32,188 nucleotides of DNA, from NCBI GenBank assembly GCA_040005975.1, contig JBDTXW010000001.1:1-32188 (forward strand), read 5' to 3'. Source of the stretch: Betaproteobacteria bacterium (GTDB taxonomy: Bacteria; Pseudomonadota; Gammaproteobacteria; Burkholderiales; Casimicrobiaceae). Numbering within the stretch: position 1 is the first letter of the stretch; every line of letters starts with the position of its first letter. Of the stretch, positions 8,540 through 32,188 are shown in pieces. The notes under the pieces are model-generated. The model was not told the origin of the DNA. It worked only from the letters and a program-made list of their open reading frames with translations, and did not search any database. The position numbers and the translations under genes are program-made.

Positions 8540-8573
8540 AAAAAAATAGGGGTTACACTTGCGTGCAACCCCT
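8540..8573 (-). terminator. Rho-independent terminator downstream of tRNA-Val
   Basis: On the minus strand a hairpin AGGGGTT/AACCCCT (plus-strand 8548-8554 pairs with 8567-8573, with three further inner pairs around a 4-nt loop) is followed directly by a T-run (plus-strand A-run 8540-8546). It starts 8 nt after the tRNA 3' end. Confidence 0.55.
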
Positions 8574-8581
8574 TGGTTCCA

Positions 8582-8656
8582 TGGTGGGCGATACTGGGAT
8601 CGAACCAGTGACCCCTGCCGTGTGAAGGCAATGCTCTACCGCTGAGCTAACCGCCC
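8582..8656 (-). tRNA. tRNA-Val (anticodon CAC), 75 nt with encoded CCA
   Basis: The reverse complement folds by hand into a cloverleaf. The acceptor stem is GGGCGGT/ATCGCCC (one G-U pair) and the D arm is GCTC-AGCGGTA-GAGC. The anticodon arm is TTGCC-TTCACAC-GGCAG, the variable loop GGGTC and the T arm ACTGG-TTCGATC-CCAGT. The discriminator is A, followed by CCA. Confidence 0.93.
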
Positions 8657-8680: not shown

Positions 8681-8710
8681 ATTTAAGCACGCGGCCCGAT
8701 CGAGGGTCAA
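8681..8710 (-). promoter_or_regulatory. Candidate sigma70-type promoter for tRNA-Val
   Basis: The minus strand reads TTGACC (8710-8705), an 18-nt spacer, then TTAAAT (8686-8681). It lies about 24 nt upstream of the mature tRNA 5' end. This is a pattern match only. Confidence 0.35.
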
Positions 8711-8816
8711 ACCGGCGATAGTATTTGTCCAAGCGTGTCCTGAACAAAAATGGGGCTAGGATGCGCGTGAATTTCTGCTCCGGGAGTGGCGGGGCGCCGC
8801 CTGTCTTGGATCGAAT

Positions 8817-10316
8817 TTGGCTAAGCTTATAGACGCAAAAGCAAAATTCCCGCTGGCTCAAGTCTTGCAGAAACAGTCGATATCCGCCGATAACCCGCTT
8901 GTGTCCCGTCTCTGTTATGACGAAATGCACGTGGCGGGTGGGGGGGTCCGCCCCCAGTACCGGGCCTTTTCGGACTGGCTGGAGAGCACGCCCGGGGACA
9001 AGATCGCGCGCAAGCGCAAGGAAGCGGAGCGCGCCTTCCATCGCCTCGGCATCACCTTTGCAGTCTACGGCGAAGACGCCGGCACGGAGCGCCTGATCCC
9101 GTTCGACATTGTGCCGCGCATCATCCCTGCCGGCGAATGGCTGACGCTGGAGCAGGGACTCAAACAGCGTGTCAGAGCGCTCAACCTTTTCCTGCACGAC
9201 ATCTATCACGGCCAAAGCATCCTCAAGGCCGGCGTGATTCCTGCCGAGCGCGTGCTTTCCAACGCGCAGTACCGGCGCGAGATGCAGGGGATGGACGTGC
9301 CCGGCGGGATCTACGCGCACGTCGCGGGCGTCGACATCGTGCGGGCCGGCGAGGGCGACTACTACGTGCTCGAGGACAATCTGCGCGTGCCCTCGGGCGT
9401 GTCCTACATGCTCGAGAATCGCAAGATGATGATGCGTCTGTTTCCGGAACTGTTTGCCACGCAGGCGATCAAGCCGGTAGAGCACTATCCCGATCTGCTC
9501 CTCGAGACCTTGCACGCGGTGGCTCCCGCCAGTGAAGATCGCCCCGAGGTCGCGGTGCTGACGCCGGGCGCCTACAACGCGGCATATTTCGAACATGCCT
9601 TTCTGGCGCAGCAGATGGGTGTCGAACTGGTCGAAGGGCAGGACCTGTTCGTGCAGAACGACGCCGTATACATGCGAACCACGCGCGGCGCGCAGCGCGT
9701 GCATGTGCTCTACCGGCGCGTCGACGACGACTATCTCGACCCCCGGGCGTTCCGCGCCGATTCGAGCCTCGGCATCCCGGGGCTCTTTGCCGCCTACCGA
9801 GCCGGCAAGGTGACCCTGGCGAACGCCATCGGCACCGGTGTTGCCGACGACAAGTCGATCTATCCGTACGTGCCCGACATGATCCGCTTTTACCTGACCG
9901 AGGAACCGATATTGAGCAACGTGCCGACCTGGCAGCTGCACCGCGACGAAGATCTCTCCTATTGCCTCGATCACTTGGCGGATCTGGTCGTCAAGGAAGT
10001 GCACGGCGCCGGCGGATACGGCATGCTGGTCGGGCCGGCGGCGAGCGCCGCCGAGCGCGAGGCGTTTCGCGCGCGCATCGTCGCCAGCCCCGCAAAGTAC
10101 ATCGCCCAGCCGACATTGGCCTTGTCGACCTGTCCGACGTTCACCGAGTCGGGGCTCGCCCCGCGGCACATCGACCTGCGGCCGTATGTGCTGTCGGGGC
10201 GCACGGTGAGCCTGGTGCCGGGAGGGCTGACCCGGGTCGCGCTGCGGGAGGGTTCTCTGGTCGTCAACTCCTCGCAGGGGGGCGGCACCAAGGACACCTG
10301 GGTGATGGCGGCCTAG
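8817..10316 (+). CDS. Circularly permuted type-2 ATP-grasp protein (COG2308-like amidoligase); 499 aa from TTG 8817, with alternative starts GTG 8901 (471 aa) and ATG 8925 (463 aa)
   Basis: The characteristic stretches are YDEMH..GGVRPQYRAFSDWL, ERLIPFDIVPRIIPAGEWLTLEQGLKQRVRALNLFLHDIYHGQ, YYVLEDNLRVPSGVSYMLENR and TLANAIGTGVADDKSIYPYVPDMIRFYL. These are what I recognise from this family. It is the first gene of an ATP-grasp/alpha-E/Anbu/transglutaminase operon. Confidence 0.88.
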   Translation: MAKLIDAKAKFPLAQVLQKQSISADNPLVSRLCYDEMHVAGGGVRPQYRAFSDWLESTPGDKIARKRKEAERAFHRLGITFAVYGEDAGTERLIPFDIVPRIIPAGEWLTLEQGLKQRVRALNLFLHDIYHGQSILKAGVIPAERVLSNAQYRREMQGMDVPGGIYAHVAGVDIVRAGEGDYYVLEDNLRVPSGVSYMLENRKMMMRLFPELFATQAIKPVEHYPDLLLETLHAVAPASEDRPEVAVLTPGAYNAAYFEHAFLAQQMGVELVEGQDLFVQNDAVYMRTTRGAQRVHVLYRRVDDDYLDPRAFRADSSLGIPGLFAAYRAGKVTLANAIGTGVADDKSIYPYVPDMIRFYLTEEPILSNVPTWQLHRDEDLSYCLDHLADLVVKEVHGAGGYGMLVGPAASAAEREAFRARIVASPAKYIAQPTLALSTCPTFTESGLAPRHIDLRPYVLSGRTVSLVPGGLTRVALREGSLVVNSSQGGGTKDTWVMAA

Positions 10317-10378
10317 CGCTTTTGCGCCGACGAAGCCCATCCCTCTCCCACGCCCAACCGGAACGAGAAACCCCAGCG

Positions 10379-11335
10379 ATGCTGTGTCGCACCGCAAACG
10401 AGCTGTACTGGATGGCGCGCCATATCGAGCGCGCCGAGAACACCGCGCGGCTGCTCGACGTGACGTACCGGATGTCGCTGTTGCCCTATGACGCGGTCGA
10501 GCCGGGCCTCGCTTGGGCCGAGCCCTGGGCGGTGCCGCTGATCACTTCGGGGCTCGCGACCGAGTTCTACGAGCGTTTTCCGCAGCTTTCGGCCGAGAGC
10601 GTGCTGCGCTACATGATTCTGGACGCCGGCAATCCCTCGTCGATCCTGTGCTGCCTGCGCGCCGCGCGTGAATCGGCGCGGGCGGTCCGGGGCGCGATCA
10701 CGTCCGAGATGTACGAAGACCTCAATTCGGCCTGGCTGGAGATGCGCGGCCAGAACTACGACAACATCCAGGGCAGCGGCGTGTCCGAGTTTCTCGGCTG
10801 GGTCAAGATGCGCTCGCATCTGTTCCGCGGCGTGACCTTTGGCACGATGCTGCGCGACGAAGCCTATCATTTCATCCGCCTCGGCACACACATCGAGCGC
10901 GCCGACAATACCGCCCGCATACTGGACGTCAAGTACCACACGCTGCTGCCATCGGCGGCGGAGGTCGGAGGTGCCGTCGACTACTACCAGTGGGGCGCGC
11001 TGCTGCGCTCGGTATCGGGCTTCGAGTCCTATCGCAAGATCTACAGCGACGTGATCACGCCGCGTCGCGTGGCCGAGCTGCTGATCCTGCGGCAGGACAT
11101 GCCGCGCTCGCTGCATTCGTGCATGAATTTCATCAACGAGACCCTCGCGGTGCTTTGCGACGATGGCTCGACCGAGATCAGGCGCGCCAGCGGCGAGCTG
11201 CACGCCAGGCTGCGCTTCGCGCGCACCGATGACATCATCCGGTTCGGCCTGCACGAGTACCTGATGGAATTCCTCGACCGCATTTCGGAGCTGAGCGACG
11301 AAATCAACAGCCACTTCCTGGTCCCGACGTTTTAG
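10379..11335 (+). CDS. Alpha-E domain protein (COG2307-like), 318 aa
   Basis: The start MLCRTANELYWMARHIERAENTARLLDV is typical of alpha-E proteins, and a second copy of the motif (FIRLGTHIERADNTARILDV) occurs at residue 171. The track ORF (9962-) extends upstream only by overlapping the ATP-grasp gene in another frame. Confidence 0.85.
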   Translation: MLCRTANELYWMARHIERAENTARLLDVTYRMSLLPYDAVEPGLAWAEPWAVPLITSGLATEFYERFPQLSAESVLRYMILDAGNPSSILCCLRAARESARAVRGAITSEMYEDLNSAWLEMRGQNYDNIQGSGVSEFLGWVKMRSHLFRGVTFGTMLRDEAYHFIRLGTHIERADNTARILDVKYHTLLPSAAEVGGAVDYYQWGALLRSVSGFESYRKIYSDVITPRRVAELLILRQDMPRSLHSCMNFINETLAVLCDDGSTEIRRASGELHARLRFARTDDIIRFGLHEYLMEFLDRISELSDEINSHFLVPTF

Positions 11336-11386
11336 CGGCTGCGGATTCCGGTAGAATCGCCACACTCAATCGCGGCCACACCGATC

Positions 11387-12118
11387 ATGACCTATTGCGT
11401 TGCCATGTCGCTCGATGCCGGGATGATCTTCGCGTCCGACTCGCGCACGAACGCCGGCGTCGACCAGATCGGGCGGTTTTCCAAAATGCGCGTCTTCGCG
11501 CGCGACGGCGACCGCGTCGTCGTCACGCTGTCCTCGGGCAATCTCTCGATGACCCAGAGCGCGCTTAACATACTGGAGCAGCGCGCGCGCTCCGGCGACA
11601 GTCAGCTGCAACTGTGGAATGCGCCATCGATGTTCGACATCGCCCGGCTGGTCGGCGACGCCCTGCGCGAGGTCAAGACACGCGACGGACCGTATCTGCT
11701 GCAGAACAATATCGATTCGCACGCGACCTTCATCGTCGGCGGCCAGGTGCGGGGCGAGCCGCCGCGTCTGTTCGAGGTCTACAGCGAGGGGAATTTCATC
11801 GAGGCGACTGCCGACACCTGCTATTTCCAGATCGGCGAGAGCAAGTACGGCAAGCCGGTGATCGACAGGGTCATCACGCGCGCGACATCGTTGCAGGAGG
11901 CGACCAAGTGCACGATCGTGTCATTCGACTCGACGATGCGCTCGAATATCTCGGTCGGCCTGCCGATCGACCTCGCCGTCTACGAGACCGACAGCCTGCG
12001 CGTGACGCTGCAAAAGCGGATCGAGGAATCCGACCCCTATTTCCAGATGATCCACACGCAGTGGGGCGAAGGCCTTCGCCGTGTGTTCGCCGAGCTGCCG
12101 AACCCGGAGTGGTCTTAA
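11387..12118 (+). CDS. Anbu-type proteasome beta-subunit homologue (Ntn-hydrolase peptidase), 243 aa
   Basis: The N-terminus MTYCVAMSLDAGMIFASDSRTNAG places Thr directly after the initiator Met, which is the candidate Ntn nucleophile. Candidate Asp (SDSRT) and Lys (FSKMRVF) positions follow. Its size and its operon context with cpATP-grasp, alpha-E and transglutaminase match Anbu. Confidence 0.85.
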   Translation: MTYCVAMSLDAGMIFASDSRTNAGVDQIGRFSKMRVFARDGDRVVVTLSSGNLSMTQSALNILEQRARSGDSQLQLWNAPSMFDIARLVGDALREVKTRDGPYLLQNNIDSHATFIVGGQVRGEPPRLFEVYSEGNFIEATADTCYFQIGESKYGKPVIDRVITRATSLQEATKCTIVSFDSTMRSNISVGLPIDLAVYETDSLRVTLQKRIEESDPYFQMIHTQWGEGLRRVFAELPNPEWS

Positions 12119-12132
12119 AGGGGCGTGTCCGG

Positions 12133-15100
12133 ATGGCGATCCGCGTAGCGCTGCAGCACCACACGACGTACACGTTCGACCGGTTCGTCAATTTGTCGCC
12201 GCACGAAGTGCGCCTTCGACCGGCGCCGCACTGCCGCACCCCGATCGTCGGTTATTCCCTTCGAGTCGATCCGGCGCGGCATTTTCTGAACTGGCAGCAG
12301 GACCCGTACGGCAACTGGGTGGCGCGGCTGGTCTTTCCCGAACGCGCGAACCGGCTGGAGATCATCGTCGACCTGACCGCCGACATGACGGTCATCAACC
12401 CGTTCGATTTCTTTGTCGAGCCCTATGCCGAGCACTTTCCCTTTGGGTATGCGGGATCGCTCGCCAAGGAGCTCATTCCCTTCCTCGAGGCTGAGGTGCC
12501 CGAGCCGCGGCTCGAAGCGTGGCTCGCGGCGTTTCGCGCCAGCATCCAACCGGACGAGGCGACGGTGCCGATGCTGGTCCGGCTCAACCAGCAGATCAAA
12601 ACCGAGATCCGCTACCTGGTGCGAATGGAGCCGGGCGTGCAGACACCCGAGCAGACGCTCGCCGAAGCGAGCGGCTCGTGTCGCGACAGCGGATGGATGC
12701 TGGTGCAGATCCTGCGCCAGCTGGGACTCGCGGCGCGCTTCACCTCCGGCTACCTGATCCAGCTCGTCGCCGACGTCAAGGCGCTCGATGGACCAGCCGG
12801 CCCCGAGCGCGATTTCACCGATCTGCACGCGTGGGCCGAGGTCTATCTGCCGGGCGCCGGGTGGATCGGCCTCGACCCGACCTCGGGACTGCTGGCCGGT
12901 GAAGGGCACATTCCACTGGCGTCCACCGCGGATCCGGGCAGCGCGGCGCCGGTGGTTGGCTACACCGACCCGTGCCGCAGCGAGCTCCACGTGAAGATGA
13001 CGGTGACGCGCGCGCACGAGGATCCGCGCGTTACGCTGCCGTATACCGAAGCGCAATGGGCGGCGATTGACGCGCTGGGCGAACAGGTCGATCGTGATCT
13101 CGCCGCGCACGACGTACGCCTGACCCAAGGCGGGGAGCCGACGTTCGTCTCGATCGACGACATGGAAGGCAAGGAGTGGACGATCGCGGCGCTGGGGACC
13201 AAAAAGCGCGAGCTCGCCGAAATCCTGCTGCGGCGCCTGATGGCGCGCTTCGCCCGCGGCGGATTCGTGCATACCGGCCTGGGCAAATGGTATCCGGGCG
13301 AGCCGCTGCCGCGCTGGGCGCTTTCTGTCTATTGGCGCGACGACGGCATCCCGCTCTGGAGCGATGAGTCCCTGCTCGCCGACACGCGGCGTCCCGGGCG
13401 CGCCGATCTTTCGGCCGCGCGCGACTTCACCGGTGCCCTCGCGGTAGCGCTGGGATTGCCTTCGGAAATGGTGTTGACCGCGTACGAGGACGTGCCGCGG
13501 CTGCTCGGCGAGGAGGCCGCGCTGCCGATCAACGCCGACCCTCTGCAGGCAGATCTGTCGAATCCTGCGGAGCGCTCGCGCCTCGCACAGCTGCTATTGT
13601 CCGGACTCGATCGCCCGGCCGGATTCGTTCTTCCGCTCAAGGCGGTGCCCGAGCATGAGGATCGCGGCCACGGCGCCGTCTGGGAAACGAGCCCCTGGCC
13701 GCTGCGGCGCGAGCGCCTGTACGCGGTTGCAGGCGATTCGCCGCTGGGCTTGCGTCTGCCCTTGTCGGCGCTGCCGAAGGTCTTGCCCGTGGAGGAAGAA
13801 ACCGAGTACGCGGTCGACCCATTCGTGCCCCGCAGCGCGCTGGTGGGGCGATCGCGGGGCGCCGCGAGGCGCGGAACGGCCCGCGGTGACAAACCGCGCG
13901 AGGTCATCAAGACCGCGCTGACCGTCCAGATTCGCGACGGGCACCTTTACGTGTTCATGCCGCCGTTGAAGCGCGTCGAGGATTACATCGAGCTGCTGGG
14001 CACCGTCGAGCACACCGCCCGGGCGATGCGATTGCCGGTCGCCATCGAAGGTTATGCGCCTCCGCGCGACCCGCGTCTGCGCATGCTCGGCGTCACGCCC
14101 GATCCCGGCGTGATCGAGGTCAACGTCCATCCGGCAGCGTCGTGGCACGAATTGACCGCGACGACCGAAACGCTCTATGAGGAAGCGCGGCAGGCGCGGC
14201 TTGGAACCGAAAAATTCATGCTCGACGGCCGCCATACGGGCACCGGCGGCGGCAATCACATTACCCTGGGTGGCGCGACGCCGGCCGACAGTCCGCTGCT
14301 GCGGCGCCCAGACTTGTTGCAAAGCCTGCTCACCTACTGGCAGAACCATCCGGCGCTTTCGTATCTTTTTTCCGGCATGTTCGTCGGACCGACCAGCCAG
14401 GCACCGCGGGTCGACGAGGCGCGAGACGATCGTCTCTACGAGCTGGAGATCGCGTTTCAGCAACTCGCGCGCAAGCACGAGTTCAAGAAGGATGAATCGC
14501 TGCCATGGCTTATCGACCGGTCGTTGCGTCATCTGCTGGCGGACCTCACGGGCAACACGCATCGCGCCGAGTTCTCGATCGACAAGCTGTATTCGCCGGA
14601 CTCGCCGACCGGACGGCTGGGACTGCTCGAATTTCGCGCCTTCGAGATGCCGCCCCATGCGCGCATGAGCGCCGTGCAAATGCTGCTGCTGCGGTCGCTG
14701 GTGGCGCGCTTCTGGCGAGAGCCGTACCGTGGCCCGCTGATACGCTGGGGAACCGCGCTGCACGACCGCTGGCTGCTGCCGCACTATGTGATGACCGACA
14801 TGCGCGACGTCATCGCCGAGCTCAACGCCGCGGGCTACGGGTTCGCGGAGACGTGGCTCGCGCCGTTCGTCGAGTTTCGCTTTCCCCGCTTCGGCGCCGT
14901 CGACTATGACGGTGTGTCGATCGAATTGCGCCAGGCAATCGAGCCGTGGCATGTCCTCGGCGAAGAGATAAGCGGCACCGGCATGGCGCGTTATGTCGAT
15001 TCGTCGGTCGAGCGCCTGCAGGTCAAGACAAACGGCATGACCGAGGGGCGTCACGTGCTGACCTGTAATGGACGGGTGCTGCCGCTGACCGCGACCGGCG

Positions 15101-15429
15101 CGCCGCGGCAATACGTTGCCGGCGTGCGCTTCAAGGCGTGGAGTCCGCCGTCGGCGCTGCATCCGACAATCGGCGTCCATGCGCCGCTGACCTTCGATCT
15201 GGTCGATACCTGGTCCAGACGTGCGATCGGCGGCTGCACCTATCACGTTACCCATCCGGGCGGCCGCAATTACGATACTTTTCCGGTCAATGCGAACGAG
15301 GCGGAAGCGCGCCGCGTGGCGCGCTTCTGGCCGCACGGCCACACGCCGGGACCGTTGGACATTGCGCCGGAGACGCCCAATCCCGCCACGCCGACGACGC
15401 TCGATCTGCGCTGGCAGCCGCCGGGCTGA
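12133..15429 (+). CDS. Large transglutaminase-family protein: Bact_transglu_N-like N-terminus, transglutaminase core, then about 800 aa of DUF2126-like region (1098 aa)
   Basis: The start MAIRVALQHHTTYTFDRFVNLSPHEVRLRPAPH is the typical N-domain. The core triad is intact: GSC(183)RDSGW, DLH(232)AWAEVY and GLD(248)PT. The long C-terminal part contains a Gly-rich stretch HTGTGGGNHITLGG. The track ORF start at 11614 overlaps the Anbu gene and was rejected in favour of ATG 12133. Confidence 0.88.
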   Translation: MAIRVALQHHTTYTFDRFVNLSPHEVRLRPAPHCRTPIVGYSLRVDPARHFLNWQQDPYGNWVARLVFPERANRLEIIVDLTADMTVINPFDFFVEPYAEHFPFGYAGSLAKELIPFLEAEVPEPRLEAWLAAFRASIQPDEATVPMLVRLNQQIKTEIRYLVRMEPGVQTPEQTLAEASGSCRDSGWMLVQILRQLGLAARFTSGYLIQLVADVKALDGPAGPERDFTDLHAWAEVYLPGAGWIGLDPTSGLLAGEGHIPLASTADPGSAAPVVGYTDPCRSELHVKMTVTRAHEDPRVTLPYTEAQWAAIDALGEQVDRDLAAHDVRLTQGGEPTFVSIDDMEGKEWTIAALGTKKRELAEILLRRLMARFARGGFVHTGLGKWYPGEPLPRWALSVYWRDDGIPLWSDESLLADTRRPGRADLSAARDFTGALAVALGLPSEMVLTAYEDVPRLLGEEAALPINADPLQADLSNPAERSRLAQLLLSGLDRPAGFVLPLKAVPEHEDRGHGAVWETSPWPLRRERLYAVAGDSPLGLRLPLSALPKVLPVEEETEYAVDPFVPRSALVGRSRGAARRGTARGDKPREVIKTALTVQIRDGHLYVFMPPLKRVEDYIELLGTVEHTARAMRLPVAIEGYAPPRDPRLRMLGVTPDPGVIEVNVHPAASWHELTATTETLYEEARQARLGTEKFMLDGRHTGTGGGNHITLGGATPADSPLLRRPDLLQSLLTYWQNHPALSYLFSGMFVGPTSQAPRVDEARDDRLYELEIAFQQLARKHEFKKDESLPWLIDRSLRHLLADLTGNTHRAEFSIDKLYSPDSPTGRLGLLEFRAFEMPPHARMSAVQMLLLRSLVARFWREPYRGPLIRWGTALHDRWLLPHYVMTDMRDVIAELNAAGYGFAETWLAPFVEFRFPRFGAVDYDGVSIELRQAIEPWHVLGEEISGTGMARYVDSSVERLQVKTNGMTEGRHVLTCNGRVLPLTATGAPRQYVAGVRFKAWSPPSALHPTIGVHAPLTFDLVDTWSRRAIGGCTYHVTHPGGRNYDTFPVNANEAEARRVARFWPHGHTPGPLDIAPETPNPATPTTLDLRWQPPG

Positions 15430-15444
15430 GAAACTCCGCCCGCC

Positions 15445-18604
<3,160 letters not shown>

Positions 18605-18612
18605 GCCAACGG

Positions 18613-20779
<2,167 letters not shown>

Positions 20780-20787
20780 CGAATCGC

Positions 20788-21105
20788 TTGCGCCTGCTTG
20801 GACTCGTTTTCGCGCTGCTGATCCTGGCCCTGCAGTATCCGCTGTGGCTCGGCAAGGGAGGTTGGCTGCGCGTACGCGAGCTCAACGCCCAGGTCGAGGC
20901 GCAGAAGGACGTCAACGCCGGACTCAAGGCGCGCAATGCGGCGCTGGATGCGGAAGTCAGCGACCTGAAGCAGGGCACCGAGGCCATCGAGGAACGCGCG
21001 CGCTCCGAGCTCGGCATGATTCGCCAGGACGAGGTCTTTTTCCAGCTTCCGCCAGCAACGCCGTCGGGTACGGGCACACCATCCGCGGCGCCGTCATCCC
21101 GCTAG
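20788..21105 (+). CDS. ftsB: Cell division protein FtsB (105 aa, TTG start as listed)
   Basis: An N-terminal TM helix is followed by a coiled coil. The sequence is collinear with E. coli FtsB ([44 protein letters not shown]). The conserved eno-ftsB order supports the call. Confidence 0.88.
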
Positions 21106-21175
21106 TGCGATTCGTACGTCGTTCGGATGTCATGTTGCCGCAGCCGGCGATCCGCCGTGCGTTCCATTGTCAGCC

Positions 21176-21958
21176 ATGCCGCGCATCAGCTCGTCCGACA
21201 ATCCCCGCCTGAAGGAAGCGGCCCGTCTGATCGCGTCGTCGCGAGAGCGCCGAAAATCCGGCCGTTGCGTACTCGAAGGGGAGCATCTGGTCGATGTCTA
21301 TTGCCGGCGCTACGGCCCGCCCGAAACGCTGCTGGTCGCCGAATCCGCCGTCGATCGGCCGACGGTGCGCGCGTTGCTGGCCCGCATCCCGCCGGCGCGC
21401 ACCCTGATCGTCGCCGAATCGGCCTGGGCGGACCTGGCGCAGCTGCCCGCTGCCGTCGGCTTGCTGGCAGTAGTGACCGCACCGGTTCCGGGAGTCGAGC
21501 GCGCTGCGGATTTCTGCCTGCTGCTCGACGGCGTTCAGGACCCGGGCAACGTCGGCTCGATGCTGCGCACCGCCGCCGCGGCCGGCGTCGCACAGGTCTT
21601 CATGTCGCCGCATTGCGCGTTCGCGTGGTCGCCGAAGGTGCTGCGCGCCGGGCAGGGCGCGCATTTTCACCTGGCGATATTCGAGGGCATCGATCTCGGT
21701 GGCTGGGCGCGCGCCTATCGCGGCAAGGTCGTAGCGATGGTCGCGGCCGAAGGCGAGACGCTGTACGAGGCGGACCTGAGCGGGCCGGTGGCCATTGCGA
21801 TCGGCAACGAGGGCGCAGGACTATCCGACCAGCTCATCGCGGCAGCGCGCCTGCGCGTGACGATTCCGATGCCCGGCGGATTCGAATCGCTCAACGCCGC
21901 TGCGGCGGCGGCGATCTCGCTTTACGAGTGCGTCAGGCAACGGGCGCGACGGACGTAG
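21176..21958 (+). CDS. TrmH/SpoU-family RNA 2'-O-methyltransferase (260 aa from ATG 21176; the track lists TTG 21167)
   Basis: The three SpoU motifs are present: LDGVQDPGNVGSMLRTAAAAG, IAIGNEGAGLS and IPMPGGFESLNAAAAAAISLYE. The specific RNA target is not assignable. Confidence 0.8.
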   Translation: MPRISSSDNPRLKEAARLIASSRERRKSGRCVLEGEHLVDVYCRRYGPPETLLVAESAVDRPTVRALLARIPPARTLIVAESAWADLAQLPAAVGLLAVVTAPVPGVERAADFCLLLDGVQDPGNVGSMLRTAAAAGVAQVFMSPHCAFAWSPKVLRAGQGAHFHLAIFEGIDLGGWARAYRGKVVAMVAAEGETLYEADLSGPVAIAIGNEGAGLSDQLIAAARLRVTIPMPGGFESLNAAAAAAISLYECVRQRARRT

Positions 21959-22001
21959 GCCCGCGGCGGCCGAAAAGATGGGCGCCGGCGCGCCGCTTGC
22001 G

Positions 22002-22790
22002 CTAGATCGGCGGCAGGAAAACCGCCGAGAACGTCGCGTCCTCGCGGCATCCGCCGCCGACATTGGGCGCGCTGAAGCTCGCCTCGATGCCGAAGGTCGT
22101 CGCCTTGATTTCGGACACTGCTGCCGTCGTCGACAGCCCCGTCGAGCATGAGTAGCTGGCATCGGGGATGCGGTAGAGCTGGCCGAGCTGCTCGAAGGCG
22201 CCAGACAGGATGCAGGTCATGCCGCTGTCGCTGTAGTTGAAGGTGAACGTCATCGCATCGCCGATGACTTGCGCGATACCGAGATTGAATCTGTCCGTGT
22301 ACGCTGGGGCAGCGCAGTTAGAGTAAGTGCCGGCCTGCGTGCCGCTATACGAGCCGGCGATCGGGATCAAAGTCAGTGCCTGCCGCTGGATCGCCTTGAC
22401 GATCGTGGGACCGCCGGTGAGCGCATAGGTGAGGTTCGCCGTGTAGGCGCTGGTCGGCTGAAACGATGCGGTGCCGACCTGGGCGCTACCGGCGCCGTCG
22501 GCGGGATTCCAAGGTGCGGCGAAATACGTGCCGGTCGTCGCGTACAGCGGGCCGTTGAAGTTGCCGTTGGCGTCCTGAGTGACGGCGGCAACATACCAGG
22601 TAGGCTTGTTGTCGGGCCCATAGATGAAGAACGTCAGAAACACAAACGCGTCGCTTTGCACGACATTGACACCCCAGCCCCCGCCCGCCGTTGACTGCTC
22701 CGCGGGATTGAACCAGATGTCGGTGTAGTCGGAAGCGCCGACGCGAAACGCCGACGCGAGCAGCAAAACCCCGAAGATCAATCGCCGCAC
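22002..22790 (-). CDS. Hypothetical secreted protein (262 aa from GTG 22790; the track lists TTG 22814)
   Basis: GTG 22790 is preceded by AGGAGA with a 5-nt spacer. There is a signal peptide (RRLIFGVLLLASAFRVGA|SDY). The mature part is Gly/Thr/Ala/Tyr-rich and probably all-beta, with six Cys, all in the C-terminal half. I recognise no characterised family. Confidence 0.6.
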   Translation of the reverse strand: MRRLIFGVLLLASAFRVGASDYTDIWFNPAEQSTAGGGWGVNVVQSDAFVFLTFFIYGPDNKPTWYVAAVTQDANGNFNGPLYATTGTYFAAPWNPADGAGSAQVGTASFQPTSAYTANLTYALTGGPTIVKAIQRQALTLIPIAGSYSGTQAGTYSNCAAPAYTDRFNLGIAQVIGDAMTFTFNYSDSGMTCILSGAFEQLGQLYRIPDASYSCSTGLSTTAAVSEIKATTFGIEASFSAPNVGGGCREDATFSAVFLPPI

Positions 22791-22823
22791 TTCGTTCTCC
22801 TGAGAACAAAACAAGCCGCAAGT

Positions 22824-23759
22824 TTAGCAGCGTCGCGACAGCCGCGATGTAACCGAAGGTAACAGCGCATCGATCGCGCTGCGCAGCGGAAGCGCGGGCT
22901 GCGCGCCGGCTGACGTACAGGCAAGTGAGCCTGCGGCGACCGCGAAGCGCAGCGCCATCGGACGATCGTCGCCGGCGTCGAGCGCGGCCGCGTAGGCGCC
23001 GATGAAGGCATCGCCGGCGCCGGTGGTATCGACCACGCTGATCTGCGGCGCGGCGACGCGGATCTCGTCGTCGCCGAGAACGCTCACCGCGCCGGCCGCC
23101 CCTTGCGTGACCACGACCTCGAGCCCGTCGTTGGCTGCTGCCGCCGTCGCCGCGAACGCCGCCGCTTCTGGCGGCCACCCCAGCGCGGACGCCAGCGCAT
23201 GCGCTTCGCTCTCGTTGATGATCAATGTATCGATCAACGCCAGAAGCTCAAGTGTCAAAGGCCGCGCCGGCGCCGCGTTGAGCACGATGCGCATGCCCGT
23301 CCGCATCGCCCGGGCGATCAGCGTCGCGTTGGCCGACGCCGGAACCTCGTGTTGCAGCAACAGTATCGCGTCCTGCCCGAGTACGGCATCGGGGACGGTG
23401 CTGGCATCGACCCGATCGTTCGCTCCGGGCACGACAACGATCGTATTTTCCCCGGCGTCATCGACCAGTATGGTCGCGCAGCCGGTCGGTAAATCGACGA
23501 TGCGCACGCCGGAGAGATCCACAGGGCCATTGCGAACGAGCGCCAGCGCGCTATCCGCTGCAGCGTCGCGTCCTACCGCGCCGCAGAGATGCACGACGCC
23601 GCCGGCGCGCGCTGCCGCCAGCGCCTGGTTGGCCCCTTTGCCACCCGGATAGCTGGCAAAGCCGCGTCCGAGCAGGGTTTCACCGGGCGAGGGCAGCCGT
23701 TCGACGCGCGTGACCAAGTCGAGGTTAATCGAGCCGAAGACGACGATCATGCCGGTCAC
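22824..23759 (-). CDS. rbsK: Ribokinase (PfkB family), 311 aa from GTG 23759 (alternative ATG at 23750)
   Basis: The motifs are IVVFGSINLDLV, GGKGANQALAAARAG and DTTGAGDAFIGAYAAAL (the PfkB anion hole and catalytic Asp). GTG 23759 overlaps the stop of the upstream mini-ORF (GTGA). Confidence 0.85.
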   Translation of the reverse strand: MTGMIVVFGSINLDLVTRVERLPSPGETLLGRGFASYPGGKGANQALAAARAGGVVHLCGAVGRDAAADSALALVRNGPVDLSGVRIVDLPTGCATILVDDAGENTIVVVPGANDRVDASTVPDAVLGQDAILLLQHEVPASANATLIARAMRTGMRIVLNAAPARPLTLELLALIDTLIINESEAHALASALGWPPEAAAFAATAAAANDGLEVVVTQGAAGAVSVLGDDEIRVAAPQISVVDTTGAGDAFIGAYAAALDAGDDRPMALRFAVAAGSLACTSAGAQPALPLRSAIDALLPSVTSRLSRRC

Positions 23760-23932
23760 GCCGGCGGACAGGTGTCGACCCCGCCTTTGACCAGAAGGAT
23801 GTTGCCGTAGGGGCGCAGTTTGGCGGTGCGCACGACCGCATAGGCATTGCGGGCGCGGGCGTAGAAGGTCTCGCGTTCAACACTGCCGACGTCGATCGCC
23901 ACCCTTCCGTGCCGCGCGAAGCCCTTCAGCAT
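23756..23932 (-). pseudogene. 58-codon ORF matching only the C-terminal part of an RbsD/FucU-family sugar mutarotase/pyranase (truncated remnant or mini-protein)
   Basis: My own translation is MLKGFARHGRVAIDVGSVERETFYARARNAYAVVRTAKLRPYGNILLVKGGVDTCPPA, below the ORF-track size cutoff. The segment FYARARNAYAVVRT...PYGNILLVKGGV parallels the FucU C-terminus as I recall it (FYERAQKAFAIVITGE..KYGNILLKKGV). No N-terminal half is present. The ORF starts 4 nt after the permease stop and overlaps the rbsK start. Confidence 0.5.
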
Positions 23933-23936
23933 TGCC

Positions 23937-24806
23937 TCATCCCTTGATGCCGCCGTGCGTGAGCCCGACGACGATCTCCTTCTGGATGACGATCGTGAGT
24001 AGCAGCACCGGCAGCGTGACGACGATCGCCGCCGCGGCCAGAGGCCCCCACGCCAGCTGCTCGAACGTCAGCACGTTGTAGACGGCGGCCGGCAGCGTGC
24101 GCGTCGCGCGCCCGGCCAGCACGGCGCCGAAGACGAAGTTGTTCCAGGAGAAGATGAAGGCGAGAATCGTCGCGACGACGATGCCGGGCCGCGCCAGCGG
24201 CAGCGCAACATAGCGAAACGTCGTCCACACGCTTCCGCCGTCGATCAGCGCGGCTTCCTCCAGCTCGCGCGGCAGCGTTTCGAAATGGCCCGCCATCACG
24301 TAAACGATGATCGGTACGGTGATCACCAGATGGGTGATGACCAGCGCGGTGAGCGTGTTGCTTAGTCCGAGGAGCTGAAACACGGTGAACAGCGGAATCA
24401 GATAGGACAACGCCGGCGTCATGCGGGCAATGAGGATCAGCACCGTCAGCTTGTGCGCCTGCGTGCGCGCGATGCCGTACCCGGCCGGCACGCCGACGGC
24501 GAGCGCGACCAGCGTCGCCAGCCCGGACACGACGACGCTGTTCCAGAAATACAGGCCCATCGAATTTTCCGAAAAGACCTGGACGAAATTGCGCAAGGTC
24601 AGCTGGCTCGGAATGAATACCGGTGGGTAGGAGAGATTGTCGATCTCGTTTTTCAGCGACAGGGACAGCATCCACAGGAACACCAGGATCGCCGGCGAGA
24701 CGATGACCAGGACCGACAGCGCGAAGCCGACGCGGCGCAACTTCCTGCGCCAGCGGGCGCGCTTGGCGCCAGGCGCCGGTATCGCGTGTCCCGCGGCTAC
24801 GTCCAT
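23937..24806 (-). CDS. Carbohydrate ABC transporter permease (CUT1/MalG-like), 289 aa from ATG 24806
   Basis: It is a multi-TM protein with the EAA-type loop region (ELEEAALIDGGSVWTTFRYVALPLARPG). The start overlaps the preceding permease gene by 10 nt. The upstream part of the track ORF (to 25082) overlaps that gene and was rejected. Confidence 0.85.
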   Translation of the reverse strand: MDVAAGHAIPAPGAKRARWRRKLRRVGFALSVLVIVSPAILVFLWMLSLSLKNEIDNLSYPPVFIPSQLTLRNFVQVFSENSMGLYFWNSVVVSGLATLVALAVGVPAGYGIARTQAHKLTVLILIARMTPALSYLIPLFTVFQLLGLSNTLTALVITHLVITVPIIVYVMAGHFETLPRELEEAALIDGGSVWTTFRYVALPLARPGIVVATILAFIFSWNNFVFGAVLAGRATRTLPAAVYNVLTFEQLAWGPLAAAAIVVTLPVLLLTIVIQKEIVVGLTHGGIKG

Positions 24807-25702
24807 TTGGCCTTCTCCCTGACGTGCAGCAGCAGCAACGCGAGTGCGAGGATGATGACGAAAAAGACGACGACCACCGCCGACGCGTTGCCGACGTTGT
24901 AGAAGGCGAACGCCTGCAGATACAGGTAAAGGTTGATCGTCTCCGACGCGGTGCCGGGTCCGCCCTGGCTGATGACGTAGATCGTGTCGAACGCCTTCAG
25001 CGCATCGATCGTGCGGATGACGGCGGCGACAATCAGGAACGGTGCGAGCAGCGGCAGCGTGATATAGCGGAACAATTGCCACTCGCTGGCGCCGTCGAGG
25101 CGTGCGCTTTCGTAGGGCTCGGTCGGCAGCGCGGCCAGCCCGCCAAGCACGATCAGCATGATCAGCGGCGTCCAGTGCCAGATTTCAACAAGGACGAGGC
25201 TCGGAATGACCCAAGTCGGCGAGTAGACCCAGAGCGAAGGCGGCAGTCCGACCAGGCTCAGCAGGTAATTGAGCACCCCCTGCTGCGGGTGGAACATCAT
25301 CGTCCACACCAGCGCCACTGCGACCGGCGTCGCCATCATCGGCATCGTGAATATCGAGCGCAGCATCCCGCGCAGCGGAAACTCGCGATGGAAGATCAGC
25401 GCCGCGACGGTACCCAGGATCAGCGGGAAGACGACCGCCAGCAGCGTGAAGTAGAACGTGTGGACAATCGATTCGAGAAAGCGCTTGTTCGTTGCGAGCT
25501 GCGCGTAATTGTCGAAGCCGACAAAATGCGCGACCGACCCGATCCTCCAATCGAACGCGCTCATCCAGACGGTGAACGCCCAGGGGAAGATGATGACGGC
25601 GCCGATGACGACCAGCGCCGGCACGGCAAACAGCAGATAGCTACGCCGGCGCCGGGCGAGGAAGCCCGGGCGAGGCGCGGGCGGCGCGATGGCTGCGTTC
25701 AT
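24797..25702 (-). CDS. Carbohydrate ABC transporter permease (CUT1/MalF/UgpA-like), 301 aa
   Basis: It has about six predicted TM segments and the EAA loop YESARLDGASEWQLFRYITLPLLAP. Confidence 0.85.
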   Translation of the reverse strand: MNAAIAPPAPRPGFLARRRRSYLLFAVPALVVIGAVIIFPWAFTVWMSAFDWRIGSVAHFVGFDNYAQLATNKRFLESIVHTFYFTLLAVVFPLILGTVAALIFHREFPLRGMLRSIFTMPMMATPVAVALVWTMMFHPQQGVLNYLLSLVGLPPSLWVYSPTWVIPSLVLVEIWHWTPLIMLIVLGGLAALPTEPYESARLDGASEWQLFRYITLPLLAPFLIVAAVIRTIDALKAFDTIYVISQGGPGTASETINLYLYLQAFAFYNVGNASAVVVVFFVIILALALLLLHVREKAKWT

Positions 25703-25757
25703 CGCCTGGGCCGATGCGACGACCCGCGCCGTCGTCGGGACGACGCGGGGCGTGCGT

Positions 25758-27119
25758 TCAGGCTTTCTCGGTCTTGTCGAGAACCGGCTGGAACTCGGCG
25801 GTCGCCCGTTTCAGCTCGGAAGCGGGGTCGGCGCCGTTGATCATGTTGGTCAGCGCGATGCCGAACGTGTCGCGGAACTCGGTCACCGCAGCGATCACCG
25901 GCAAACCAGGTTGCGCGATCTTGGCCGACGCCAGCATGCACTCCACCCACTGCTTCGGCGACTTGAAATCGCTCGACGACTGTGCCGCCGCATAAGCGGA
26001 CGTGCGCACTGGCGCGCCGGCGGCAGCCTGTAGCATGCGCGTCTGGTTGGCCTTGTTCGATGCCCATTGCAGATAGAACCAGGCCGGGCCTTTTTTCTTG
26101 CTGTAGGCCGAAATCCCCTCGCCGTCGGCGAATAGCGCCGAGACCTGCTGCTTCGGGCCGGCGGGCATCACGCCATAGCCGACCTTGCCGACGATCTTCG
26201 ATTTGGTCGGATCCTCGAGCGGTTGCGCGAAGCCGATGCCATCGAGCCACATCGCGGCCTTGCCCTGCAGAAACAGGCTCTGCGCCTCGTTCCAGTTGTA
26301 GCCGGCGACACCCTGCGGGCCGTACTTGGCGAGCATCGTCTGATACATCTTGGCCGATTCGATGGCCTCGGTCGTGTCGGTGAGCAGCTTTCCGTTCTTG
26401 TCGATGAAGCCGCCGCCGTAGCCAAGAAGGAAACTCGTCCATACCGGCACGTTGGCATTCTTCAACCCGCGCCCGACAAAACCCGAGACGCCCTTGGCGG
26501 GATCGTTGAGCTTGGCGGCGGCGTCGATCATTTGCGCGAACGTCTTCGGGAACGCGACGCCCTTGGCGTCGAACAGCTCCTTGTTGTAATAGACGACCCA
26601 GGGATCGAGGTTCAGCGGCAGGCTCATCACCCGGCCGTCCGATTCGACGGCGTAATTGAGCCCGCCCTGCGCGAAGTCGGCGAAGTCGAGATTCGGGTCC
26701 GCCAGCGAACGGTCGTTGATCATCGGCCGCAGATCGGTCAGCCAGTTGTTCTTGGCGAACTGGCGCTTTTGCACGTGATATGAAAGCGCGATCACGTCGA
26801 AGCTCGGATTGCCGGAGTTGAATTCGATGACGGCTTTTTGCCGCTGCTGCTGCTCGGGGACCATTTCCGAGCCGACAGCGATGCCGGTCATGTCCTCGAA
26901 TTCCTTGTGGTACTTCGAGAGCAAGTCGCCGCGCGGGCTCTTGACCAGCAGCACCTCGATCTTTTCGCCGTTGAATCGCTTCCAGTTGAATGCGCCCTGC
27001 GCCTGCGCACCGAGCAGCGAGGCGCCGGGTATCGCGCCCAGCGCCGCAACGCCTGTGCCGGCTTGCAGCAGCCGGCGCCGCAAGGCGTCGGTGCGATCAT
27101 CGCGGATAGGGTGAGTCAT
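25758..27119 (-). CDS. ABC transporter extracellular solute-binding protein (family 1, sugar type) with a Tat-type signal, 453 aa
   Basis: The N-terminus DALRRRLLQAGTGVAALGAIPGASLLGAQAQG carries a twin-arginine signal. Its size and composition fit family-1 sugar SBPs. A strong Shine-Dalgarno GGAGGAGG lies 6 nt upstream of the ATG, and the gene is followed by two CUT1 permeases. Confidence 0.85.
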   Translation of the reverse strand: MTHPIRDDRTDALRRRLLQAGTGVAALGAIPGASLLGAQAQGAFNWKRFNGEKIEVLLVKSPRGDLLSKYHKEFEDMTGIAVGSEMVPEQQQRQKAVIEFNSGNPSFDVIALSYHVQKRQFAKNNWLTDLRPMINDRSLADPNLDFADFAQGGLNYAVESDGRVMSLPLNLDPWVVYYNKELFDAKGVAFPKTFAQMIDAAAKLNDPAKGVSGFVGRGLKNANVPVWTSFLLGYGGGFIDKNGKLLTDTTEAIESAKMYQTMLAKYGPQGVAGYNWNEAQSLFLQGKAAMWLDGIGFAQPLEDPTKSKIVGKVGYGVMPAGPKQQVSALFADGEGISAYSKKKGPAWFYLQWASNKANQTRMLQAAAGAPVRTSAYAAAQSSSDFKSPKQWVECMLASAKIAQPGLPVIAAVTEFRDTFGIALTNMINGADPASELKRATAEFQPVLDKTEKA

Positions 27120-27150
27120 CGTAGTCCTCCTCCGGTGGCGTTATGTGACG

Positions 27151-27206
27151 ATGATCGGAGCAGCGCGGCGCCACCACCATCGCGCCGCAAGCACGGCTCC
27201 GATCAT
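27151..27206. repeat. Perfect 11-bp inverted repeat (ATGATCGGAGC ... GCTCCGATCAT) with a 34-nt GC-rich spacer that itself contains a 6-7 bp inner stem
   Basis: I read it directly from the sequence. The left arm is 27151-27161 and the right arm 27196-27206. The inner pairing is GCGGCG/CGCCGC. It lies in the 104-nt gap between the RraA-family gene and the SBP gene. Confidence 0.7.
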
Positions 27207-27223
27207 ACCCGACGGCGCGCTGC

Positions 27224-27934
27224 CTAGTGGATGACATCGAGCCCGGAAAAGACCTCGATCAAGCGTTCGGCGCTGCAGCCCGGTGCACGGGCCACTTCCA
27301 GAATTCTCGCCTCGCGTTCCGCAACCTGTTGCGCCGCTGCGGGCAATCCGGCCACCGCACCGGCCGGCACGATGACCGCGCCGTGCCTGTCGGCGTGAAC
27401 GATCTCGCCCGATCGGACCCGCATGCCCAGGACGTCGATCACGCCGCCGAACTCGACGACGTGGGCGTACGCGTGCGACGGGCCAATGCTGCCGGCCAGG
27501 AACTGGAAGCCTTGCGCCCATTGATCGATGTCGCGCACCGAGCCGTTGGTCACGAGCCCCAACGCGCCCAGCCCGCGATGGATAGCCGACTGCACCTCGC
27601 CCCAGAACGCCCCGTAGCCTGCATCGGGACCGTCGAGGTCTTCGATCAGGACCACCGATGGCTTGCGTCCGGCATCGATGTAACGGTAGTAGTCGTGACG
27701 CAATCGGTGGAGCTCTTCGGCGGATTGCTGCGGCGCCTGCTTCGCCCGGATGCGGCCGGTGCGCGCGAACCCCACGATCGGTCGCATTGCCGGAAAGCCG
27801 CAATGCGCGGGCCTCGTCGTGTAGCCCCGCGCCCGGGTCGCCGGCAACAGGACTTCGAGGGCGTTGCATATCGTCGGCGTATCGAATGCCGCCAGCGCGG
27901 CGATCGCGTCGGCGTCAGGCTCGATGGTGCTCAC
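27224..27934 (-). CDS. RraA-family protein (RraA / 4-hydroxy-4-methyl-2-oxoglutarate aldolase / oxaloacetate decarboxylase-like fold), 236 aa, GTG start
   Basis: It shows family-typical stretches (FDTPTICNAL, GAFWGEVQSAIHRGLGALGLVTNGSVRDID, SGEIVHADRHGAVIVP). The Shine-Dalgarno GAAGGAGG lies 6 nt upstream of the GTG and overlaps the stop of the upstream gene. Confidence 0.8.
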   Translation of the reverse strand: MSTIEPDADAIAALAAFDTPTICNALEVLLPATRARGYTTRPAHCGFPAMRPIVGFARTGRIRAKQAPQQSAEELHRLRHDYYRYIDAGRKPSVVLIEDLDGPDAGYGAFWGEVQSAIHRGLGALGLVTNGSVRDIDQWAQGFQFLAGSIGPSHAYAHVVEFGGVIDVLGMRVRSGEIVHADRHGAVIVPAGAVAGLPAAAQQVAEREARILEVARAPGCSAERLIEVFSGLDVIH

Positions 27935-27946
27935 TTGGGGCCTCCT

Positions 27947-28870: not shown

Positions 28871-28978
28871 TCGTTGCAATGTCTTCCTGTGCTTTTGCAC
28901 TTCGGCCCCGATGCGGGGAACATGGCAGTCGCGCCGCGTCCGCATTTGTGACGGAGCGGGCTGCCGACGGCGTCGACA

Positions 28979-31661: not shown

Positions 31662-31663
31662 CC

Positions 31664-32188
31664 CTACCAATCTTTCCATACCGCCGTCAGGCCTGCCGGC
31701 AGCGGCGGCATGTCGCCGAGATCGGCCCAGCCTTCGCCCGGTCCGTGATAGTCCGAGCCGCTCGACGCCAGCAAGCCGAAGCTTCGCGCGTGGCGTGCAT
31801 ATTCGGCAGTCTGCTCGAGCGTATGGCTGGGCGACACGACTTCGATCGCATCGCCGCCGGTCTCCCTGAACTCACCGAGCAGCTCGCGCATCGCCTGCGA
31901 GTCGACTTTGTAGCGTGCCGGATGCGCGAGCACCGCCTGGCCGCCGGCTTCGTGGATCCAGCCGATGGCCTCGGTCATCGTCGCCCACTCGTGCTCGACG
32001 TGGCCGGGCATGCCGGTGACCAGATAGCGCTTGAAGACTTCCTTGGTTTCGCGCGCGTGACCGGTCTCGACCAGAAAGCGCGCGAAATGCGTGCGGCTGA
32101 TCAGGCGCTCGCTCGTCACGTATTTCATCGCGCCTTCGTAGGCGCCCGGGATGCCCGCGGCCGCTAGCGAATCGGCAATGCGGCGTGC
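31664..32188 (-). CDS. PHP-domain phosphoesterase (TrpH/YciV-like), C-terminal part; the reading frame stays open to the window end
   Basis: The stretches AHPARY, GGDAIEVVSPSH and SSGSDYHGP are typical of the C-terminal half of TrpH/YciV-type PHP proteins. By my translation the frame upstream of the listed ATG (32128) has no stop up to position 32188. Confidence 0.7.
   Translation of the reverse strand, partial: ARRIADSLAAAGIPGAYEGAMKYVTSERLISRTHFARFLVETGHARETKEVFKRYLVTGMPGHVEHEWATMTEAIGWIHEAGGQAVLAHPARYKVDSQAMRELLGEFRETGGDAIEVVSPSHTLEQTAEYARHARSFGLLASSGSDYHGPGEGWADLGDMPPLPAGLTAVWKDW

Follow-up and report, generated by a model that had tools for sequence, protein, structure and literature searches.

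Anbu has been argued to stand near the ancestor of the proteasome, and to our knowledge no substrate, activity or phenotype has come to light for it in the eighteen years since its discovery; the published attempts at reconstitution that we know of all used canonical operons without DUF2126. Here we describe an Anbu operon of four genes, all on the plus strand, in a 32,188-nt window of DNA from an uncultured soil betaproteobacterium (the window is the whole stretch that was analysed, and all coordinates are in its numbering). On the basis of Pfam and PDB matches and of the conserved catalytic residues of Genes 3 and 4, we are as good as certain that the locus is an Anbu-1 operon of the Casimicrobiaceae (Betaproteobacteria) in a variant form, in which an ATP-grasp ligase, an Alpha-E protein and Anbu are followed by a transglutaminase (TGase) fused to DUF2126. 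The kind of operon is already known, and the arrangement with TGase-DUF2126 is a sub-variant present in dozens of public genomes. To the question of what Anbu does it adds leads rather than answers: a DUF2126 partner, and nitrogen limitation with sigma-54.

The canonical operon, with examples in the Pseudomonas aeruginosa PA1733 region, P. putida PP_2685-2688 and Yersinia bercovieri, has the order ATP-grasp (COG2308), Alpha-E (COG2307), transglutaminase (COG1305) and Anbu (COG3484) (PMC3235984; PMC6376114). The window shares with it the same four protein families, co-directional ATP-grasp and Alpha-E genes upstream of Anbu, the catalytic and S1 residues of Anbu, the lack of an AAA+ partner and, probably, a regulation of the sigma-54/NtrC nitrogen-limitation type, which is predicted here from the sigma-54 motif of the window and the NtrC-type sites of related loci. 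It differs in that its transglutaminase comes after Anbu and not before, that no stand-alone short (~270-300 aa) COG1305 transglutaminase lies between Alpha-E and Anbu, that its own transglutaminase is 25-28% identical to the canonical short ones and carries an extra 820-aa DUF2126 domain, and that Anbu proteins of this type fall mostly in a clade of their own. A first-pass annotation of the window had called the locus a complete Anbu-type operon; the family identity stands, whereas gene order and transglutaminase type depart from the canonical form. No mention of the order ATP-grasp, Alpha-E, Anbu, TGase-DUF2126 is made in three Anbu papers (PMC5666114, PMC3235984 and PMC6376114; Iyer et al. 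2009 was not covered).

A second related cluster is centred on DUF2126 and comprises TGase-DUF2126, a fused ATP-grasp/Alpha-E protein and a short transglutaminase. We saw it directly in one locus of our census (L049); B. cenocepacia I35_5080-83 was taken to be such a cluster from its gene descriptions, and M. tuberculosis Rv2566-Rv2569c is presumably another. The window has the same 1100-aa TGase-DUF2126 in association with ATP-grasp and Alpha-E, but here the latter two are separate proteins of the Anbu-operon type, Anbu lies directly upstream of TGase-DUF2126 and a second short transglutaminase is lacking. Among single-gene bacterial homologues of the proteasome beta subunit, HslV likewise uses Thr1/Asp17/Lys33 chemistry; its partner is the AAA+ ATPase HslU and its expression is under heat-shock control, whereas Anbu has neither property and is induced by nitrogen limitation (PMC3235984).

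The TGase-DUF2126 fusion and its operon partners

Judged by its sequence, Gene 4 is a 1098-residue fusion whose first ~278 residues are a TGase and whose other 820 are DUF2126, so the earlier description of the fourth protein as a transglutaminase holds for the first part and not for the second. Pfam assigns Bact_transglu_N (3e-24) and Transglut_core (3e-14) to the N-terminal module and DUF2126 (PF09899; E=0, 1281 bits, 826/826 profile positions) to the C-terminal one, and residues 1-278 form a complete equivalent of a short bacterial transglutaminase. The Cys183/His232/Asp248 triad proposed for this protein is indeed found at those positions, is invariant in 28 and in 121 homologues, and lines up with the catalytic motifs G-x-C, H-A-W-x-E and D-P-T of 3isr, a transglutaminase-like protease, and of P. 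aeruginosa TgpA (6g49). Both structures are also recovered when the Gene 4 profile is run against PDB (2e-05 and 6e-04) and by Foldseek (6e-10 and 3e-04).

The DUF2126 module carries the invariant motifs GGEPTF, PDPGVIEVN, GRHTGTGGGNH, GPTSQAPRVDEAR, GNTHRAEF and EFRxFEMPPH, and belongs to a family with 6101 representatives of 50% clusters at E<=0.001 (1771 at E<=1e-30). It has no match in PDB by sequence or by fold, Foldseek with the AlphaFold2 (AF2) model returning the transglutaminase only, and four of its sub-segments searched against Pfam at E<=10 returned DUF2126 alone. In the full-length AF2 model of Gene 4 (predicted local distance difference test, pLDDT, 69.5; predicted template modelling score, pTM, 0.61) the pLDDT falls below 50 at the most conserved motifs of DUF2126, namely GRHTGTGGGNH, GPTSQAPRVDEARDD and NTHRAEFSIDKLYSP (residues 691-707, 748-764 and 802-828; ~14203-14616), which is consistent with mobile active-site loops or with ordering that would depend on a ligand. 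Pfam labels the family 'putative amidoligase', and the Pfam descriptions and predictions for the circularly permuted ATP-grasp (cpATP-grasp), Alpha-E and DUF2126 are believed to go back to Iyer et al. 2009. In our own reading, EFRxFE and GGGNH may resemble motifs of glutamine synthetase (GS); hhalign, set to compare a 28-sequence DUF2126 profile with the single glutamine synthetase present in the loci, returned a probability of 0.2, and no similarity of DUF2126 to the GS-fold enzymes PafA and Dop is detectable. In the relative L001 (10746-14038) TGase-DUF2126 is called as two open reading frames (ORFs; 791 and 297 aa), probably through a frameshift or an assembly error, and the copy in the window is intact.

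Gene 3 scores 16 bits against Pfam Proteasome, under the 22.4-bit cut-off, and was rescued by full-length matches to the solved Anbu structures 5loy (5.2e-98, residues 2-242 onto 1-239), 5nyw (7.7e-77), 5nyj, 5nyf and 5lox (5.9e-74), its C-terminal segment aligning up to the end of the solved chains. It was the one failure among the profile searches that the first-pass annotation had suggested, since CP_ATPgrasp_2, Alpha-E, Bact_transglu_N, Transglut_core and DUF2126 were all found; with the PDB matches added, the four predicted families (cpATP-grasp, Alpha-E, proteasome homologue and transglutaminase) are confirmed, and the claim that all four components are intact agrees with their full length and retained catalytic residues. 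Gene 3 is 52% identical to the 5nyw Anbu and 62% to an Anbu-1 consensus protein. Its N-terminus, MTYCVAM, places the catalytic Thr right after the initiator Met with no propeptide, as had been noticed at the outset. In precursor numbering the catalytic residues are Thr2/Asp18/Lys33 (Thr1/Asp17/Lys32 when counted from the mature N-terminus), and they are shared by 80-81/81 Anbu sequences and by all members of a three-sequence alignment. Residues T20/F30/S48/L52/T55 give an S1 pocket of the hydrophobic/amphiphilic Anbu-1 type and not the basic Anbu-2 pocket, as the two were defined by Fuchs et al. 2017 (PMC5666114); no S1-pocket or other residue that would tell the Anbu architectures apart passed our thresholds. 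An exact-sequence look-up of the protein returned no record, and its closest homologues, 91-97% identical, come from Casimicrobiaceae/Betaproteobacteria metagenome-assembled genomes (MAGs), mostly from soil metagenomes.

Gene 1 matches CP_ATPgrasp_2 (5.7e-168, 374/374 profile positions) and CP_ATPgrasp_1 (1.7e-157) in Pfam and, with residues 6-469 aligned onto 10-472, PDB entry 3n6x (474 aa; 1.2e-224), which was deposited as a 'putative glutathionylspermidine synthase'. Solved glutathionylspermidine synthetases showed no similarity to Gene 1 even at E<=10, 3n6x being the sole match. A carboxylate-amine ligase activity is predicted from the chemistry of the family, and the Yersinia orthologue liberates phosphate from ATP (PMC6376114). 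Gene 2 is covered over the whole Alpha-E profile (PF04168; 2.1e-98, 294/294) and keeps E17/R18/E20/R24 and E173/R174/D176/R180 invariant across 36 sequences. Its AF2 model is all-alpha (pLDDT 82.6, pTM 0.84), and the fold yields no functional lead because the best PDB match in Foldseek, at E=0.12, is not significant.

Table 1. Coordinates of the operon, its predicted promoter and its immediate neighbours in the window.
Feature	Coordinates	Strand	Details
tRNA-Val(CAC)	8582-8656	-	upstream neighbour (Rfam)
Predicted sigma-54 (-24/-12) promoter TGGCTCAAGTCTTGCA	8854..8869	+	one mismatch to TGGCAC-N5-TTGCW
Predicted transcription start	~8879-8881	+	
Gene 1, circularly permuted ATP-grasp ligase	8901..10316	+	471 aa from GTG 8901 (most likely start)
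Gene 2, Alpha-E protein	10379..11335	+	318 aa, two ER motifs HIERAENTAR, HIERADNTAR
Gene 3, Anbu-1 proteasome-like Thr N-terminal nucleophile hydrolase	11387..12118	+	243 aa; Thr1 codon 11390-11392
Gene 4, TGase-DUF2126	12133..15429	+	1098 aa
Gene 4 N-terminal module, residues 1-278	12133..12966	+	Bact_transglu_N and transglutaminase core
Codon of Cys183	12679-12681	+	Gene 4 triad
Codon of His232	12826-12828	+	Gene 4 triad
Codon of Asp248	12874-12876	+	Gene 4 triad
Gene 4 C-terminal module, residues 279-1098	12967..15429	+	full-length DUF2126
Spacer between Gene 4 and gltX	15430-15444		
gltX	15445-16848		glutamyl-tRNA synthetase

Linkage of Anbu and TGase-DUF2126 across genomes

For the gene-neighbourhood census that had been recommended as a check, an Anbu alignment was searched against GTDB at one genome per species; the 80 best loci were kept, the window proteins were mapped onto these by tblastn and the loci were classified by architecture. 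The architecture of the window was found in 34/80 loci and the canonical one, with a short transglutaminase (25-28% identical to the window module) between Alpha-E and Anbu, in 17; DUF2126 lay nearby in another arrangement in 5, ATP-grasp, Alpha-E and Anbu occurred without further partners in 4, Anbu stood alone in 13, and in 7 the contig was too short for classification. Loci with the window architecture come from MAGs assigned to Casimicrobiaceae, other Burkholderiales, Gallionellaceae, Rhodocyclales, Methylococcaceae/Methylomonas and Nitrospira, with Azovibrio and Propionivibrio among the genera represented, and their Anbu proteins form mostly one clade in a rough neighbour-joining tree whose sample is biased to relatives of the window. 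In about half of the sampled Anbu loci, the neighbour of Anbu is a TGase-DUF2126 fusion of 1100 residues and not the small transglutaminase studied so far.

The two genes also meet in other arrangements. Loci L049 (7572-17638) and L052 each hold a six-gene cluster of ATP-grasp, Alpha-E, Anbu, TGase-DUF2126, a fused ATP-grasp/Alpha-E protein (852 aa) and a short transglutaminase (299 aa), in which an Anbu set and a DUF2126 set stand head to tail; the four-gene form of the window could derive from a junction of this kind. Anbu lay within 3 kb of a DUF2126 homologue in 3/3 loci sampled, which were picked only for long contigs. On the chromosome of Ferriphaselus amnicola (L084, 1-11369), an isolate in which the gene set is split, TGase-DUF2126 lies directly downstream of a nif cluster (nifE/N-like genes, NifZ, ferredoxins), with ATP-grasp, Alpha-E and a 40%-identical Anbu in convergent orientation 2 kb away; in a zetaproteobacterium a 38%-identical Anbu follows directly downstream of DUF2126; and a soil contig with a DUF2126 homologue has the gene order of the window together with a second, divergent Anbu. 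A second divergent Anbu is seen right upstream of ATP-grasp in L086 (3628-4362, minus strand, 56%) and L044 (2039-2758, 39%).

That Anbu and TGase-DUF2126 are found together again and again, even after rearrangement, speaks for a functional coupling of the two. We take DUF2126, which is fused to the transglutaminase and genetically linked to Anbu, as the likeliest missing partner of Anbu. TGase-DUF2126 tracks the Anbu phylogeny and stays linked through several rearrangements, which makes it a concrete candidate partner for in vitro reconstitution. The more specific proposal that TGase-DUF2126 acts as the partner or activator of Anbu, ligating and/or trimming amide-linked marks on polypeptides throughout this widespread clade and so feeding the Anbu split ring, is one that we regard as improbable. 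Were it true, TGase-DUF2126 and Anbu would together salvage protein nitrogen under the control of NtrC and without an unfoldase, and bacteria would have an equivalent of tag-dependent proteolysis whose components are not homologous to the known ones.

Anbu could instead be an ATP-independent protease for damaged or unneeded proteins, with neighbours that are co-regulated and biochemically separate. The loci with Anbu alone would fit this, as would the failure to detect complexes among the operon proteins (PMC6376114) and the general protein-degradation role that Fuchs 2017 prefers for Anbu (PMC5666114). We nevertheless consider a stand-alone protease very unlikely, given that Anbu stands beside ATP-grasp/Alpha-E and a transglutaminase or TGase-DUF2126 across orders, phyla and several arrangements, and that its phylogeny follows the type of partner. 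In some Burkholderiales MAGs and isolates (L073, L075 and L070; Rhizobacter, Leptothrix) a solo Anbu lies just upstream of pyrG, in the chromosomal neighbourhood of the window with the three partner genes missing.

Predicted promoter and nitrogen limitation

In 35/46 loci, with both architectures represented, the ATP-grasp gene is preceded at a distance of 62-117 nt by a sigma-54 motif, against a background of 0.038 per 260 nt in the same loci; the 2.5 Mb of strand sequence from the loci contain 11 exact consensus matches, 7 of them at this position, and the motif is invariant in an alignment of close relatives. Sigma-54 dependence is well supported because this conserved motif agrees with published data: P. 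putida PP_2685-2688 goes up 11- to 37-fold in nitrogen limitation, ranks with the most strongly induced genes there and was assigned to NtrB/NtrC (PMC7801951; PMC3325844; note added in proof of PMC3235984), and COG3484 is over-represented in predicted sigma-54 regulons of Proteobacteria (PMC12316311). The Burkholderia cluster with a large DUF2126 protein is NtrC and sigma-54 dependent. From the motifs we hold sigma-54 dependence of the operon to be highly probable and its control by nitrogen to be likely. This predicted promoter, overlooked in the first-pass annotation, is what links the operon with the regulon of nitrogen limitation.

NtrC-type sites, defined as a GCACC-N5-GGTGC palindrome with at most 1 mismatch, are found 90-260 nt upstream in 24/44 loci, often in tandem, against an expectation of 0.027, and are present in 5/8 aligned Casimicrobiaceae relatives. 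Where TGase-DUF2126 lies apart from the ATP-grasp gene, its upstream region gave no consistent signal of sigma-54/NtrC motifs. The promoter of the window together with the NtrC-type sites of its relatives carries the link to nitrogen limitation beyond Pseudomonas and points to a condition under which a phenotype might be sought. A near-palindromic block with the consensus TGTCC-N-GGACAAAAA occurs at 8736-8746 (TGTCCTGAACA) and 8685-8693 (TTAAGCAC region), between tRNA-Val and the sigma-54 promoter, and is kept in most of the aligned Casimicrobiaceae relatives, where it lies just upstream of the position of the NtrC-type site that 5/8 of them have and the window lacks; it could be a candidate site for a different regulator.

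The promoter also bears on the start of Gene 1, for which TTG 8817 had been given. This start is not borne out: the conserved sigma-54 promoter sits inside the ORF that begins there, and in the alignment of the window with eight Casimicrobiaceae relatives the stretch between the motif and the coding region diverges freely, with insertions and deletions. The start column of that alignment, five codons before a conserved YDEM, holds ATG in 5/9 and GTG in 3/9 sequences, the latter including GTG 8901 of the window. The true start is for these reasons most likely GTG 8901, ~84 nt downstream of TTG 8817; ATG 8925 (463 aa) is a further alternative and is the start used by the gene caller in relatives.

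Possible functions and genomic setting

We tentatively propose, as a reading that is entirely possible and not yet probable, that the operon carries out nitrogen-starvation-induced remodelling or salvage of amide bonds on peptides and unfolded polypeptides, and is not an unfoldase-dependent proteasome; no AAA+ unfoldase gene is present in the operon or its neighbourhood, as judged by the neighbours in the window and the synteny of relatives. Under nitrogen scarcity an NtrC-type enhancer-binding protein would turn on the sigma-54 promoter, whose motif and conservation are described above, and a single transcript of the four genes would be made. We infer co-transcription because successive genes are spaced by only 62, 51 and 14 nt, values that match those first reported for the four co-directional ORFs, and because the operon has no convincing internal terminator. 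ATP-grasp, obligately partnered by Alpha-E, would use ATP to convert a carboxylate on a peptide or unfolded polypeptide into an acyl-phosphate and would join it to an amine, as the chemistry of the family suggests. The amide or isopeptide bonds so formed might then be cleaved, deamidated or transferred by two nucleophile hydrolases, the transglutaminase module with its Cys-His-Asp triad and the Anbu ring with its Thr1, and amino acids or ammonia would be released. DUF2126 may contribute a further conserved catalytic or substrate-handling function.

Several points weigh against this proposal. The substrates of all the operon enzymes are entirely inferred, and Anbu showed no activity on peptide substrates and formed no stable complex with the other operon proteins (Piasecka 2018, PMC6376114), in agreement with the first-pass annotation, which had called its function unsolved. 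Fuchs 2017 regards Anbu as a processive protease and a peptide-synthesis system as less likely (PMC5666114). The Foldseek, Pfam and hhalign checks of DUF2126 yielded nothing that would bear out its amidoligase label or speak against it. Between tRNA-Val and the promoter of the window no NtrC-type site is found at <=2 mismatches, and such a site is not recognisable in its relatives L001, L004 and L006 either. Finally, gltX begins 15 nt past the Gene 4 stop and neither a terminator nor a sigma-70-like promoter was detected in the spacer, so the transcription unit may extend past 15429; gltX may receive partial read-through from the sigma-54 operon, or have an unrecognised internal promoter.

The same proteins could serve a small-molecule pathway, in which ATP-grasp/Alpha-E, possibly with DUF2126, would couple a small carboxylate with an amine or with an amino acid to give, for example, a gamma-glutamyl-type compound, a polyamine conjugate or a short storage peptide, and the thiol module and Anbu would act as amidohydrolases on that metabolite in nitrogen assimilation or release. 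Analogues exist in urea carboxylase/allophanate hydrolase and in glutathionylspermidine synthetase/amidase, where the bond made by an ATP-grasp amide ligase is the target of a papain-like thiol amidase; here the two activities would reside on separate proteins, and there is no detectable sequence similarity to solved glutathionylspermidine synthetases. The nearest solved homologue of Gene 1 was deposited as a putative enzyme of that kind, ATP-grasp, Alpha-E and transglutaminase occur together without Anbu (in L085 and in the second gene set of L049), the catabolism of alternative nitrogen sources is well represented in NtrC regulons, urea carboxylase included, and Anbu is inactive on proteasome peptide substrates (PMC6376114). 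Set against this are the closeness of Anbu to proteasome beta subunits, its proteasome-like S1 pocket, its ring of many active sites, which speaks for polypeptide substrates, and the lack in the locus of any linked transporter or other metabolic gene. In addition, the proteasome inhibitors MG132 and epoxomicin modify Pa-Anbu, though not an Anbu-2 protein, and their binding is taken by Fuchs 2017 to mimic the first cleavage steps (PMC5666114). We rate a small-molecule pathway as doubtful, and nothing that we computed separates it from amide-bond salvage on polypeptides.

A tag-and-degrade system after the manner of pupylation, in which ATP-grasp attaches a peptide or amino-acid tag, Anbu degrades the tagged protein and the transglutaminase removes or recycles the tag, seems to us quite unlikely. 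It would account for the presence of a ligase, a proteasome homologue and a thiol enzyme resembling an (iso)peptidase in one operon, and PMC5666114 cites Iyer et al. 2009 for the proposal of a peptide ligation/peptidase system. The likeness to the Pup-proteasome of Actinobacteria (PafA, Dop, Mpa, 20S core) is one of functional analogy only, an ATP-dependent amide ligase, a Thr hydrolase of the proteasome family and an amidase-type enzyme occurring in both. The window differs in having no Pup-like tag gene, AAA+ unfoldase or alpha subunit, in a ligase of the ATP-grasp and not the GS fold, and in a hydrolase, Anbu, whose solved assemblies are open dodecameric split rings without demonstrated proteolysis. 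No tag or leader peptide candidate emerged among the small ORFs upstream of or inside the operon, none of which is conserved, and the gaps leave 14-62 nt between genes; the operon proteins form no stable complex (PMC6376114), and DUF2126 offers no detectable PafA/Dop-like similarity. The analogy to pupylation or ubiquitin systems drawn by the first-pass annotation accordingly finds no support in the locus, which lacks a tag gene, an unfoldase and a detectable PafA/GS-like ligase.

The setting of the operon is a chromosomal housekeeping neighbourhood and not an island. Downstream follow, in order, gltX, pyrG, kdsA and eno, and a HAD hydrolase is also among the neighbours; the relatives L001 and L002 have the same four genes in the same order between tRNA-Val and gltX, and on an 800-kb contig of a relative the synteny from smc-zipA-ligA through eno is identical. 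An anti-phage or other conflict system, or a mobile island inserted by tRNA-Val, might be suspected from the position right beside a tRNA gene, and is to our mind extremely improbable: PADLOC gave zero matches, the GC content of the operon is uniform and the same as in its flanks, those flanks are housekeeping genes in conserved synteny (smc, zipA, ligA to gltX, pyrG, kdsA, eno), no integrase gene or repeats were seen around the operon, and the regulation is of the nitrogen-limitation type.

Adjacency of Gene 4 and gltX is kept in Casimicrobiaceae relatives (5 nt in L001) and not elsewhere. Rfam returns only tRNA, with no riboswitch or leader RNA, and just downstream of tRNA-Val, on the minus strand at 8548-8573, a strong terminator-like hairpin of 11 pairs is followed by a T-run. 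Three ORFs of the window, at 20643-22814, 27141-27869 and 30498-31745, have no Pfam match at 1e-5. The minus strand at 22824-30016 encodes a PfkB-family sugar kinase, two ABC permeases, a solute-binding protein and a DHDPS-family protein, a cluster that looks like one for uptake and catabolism of a sugar or sugar acid.

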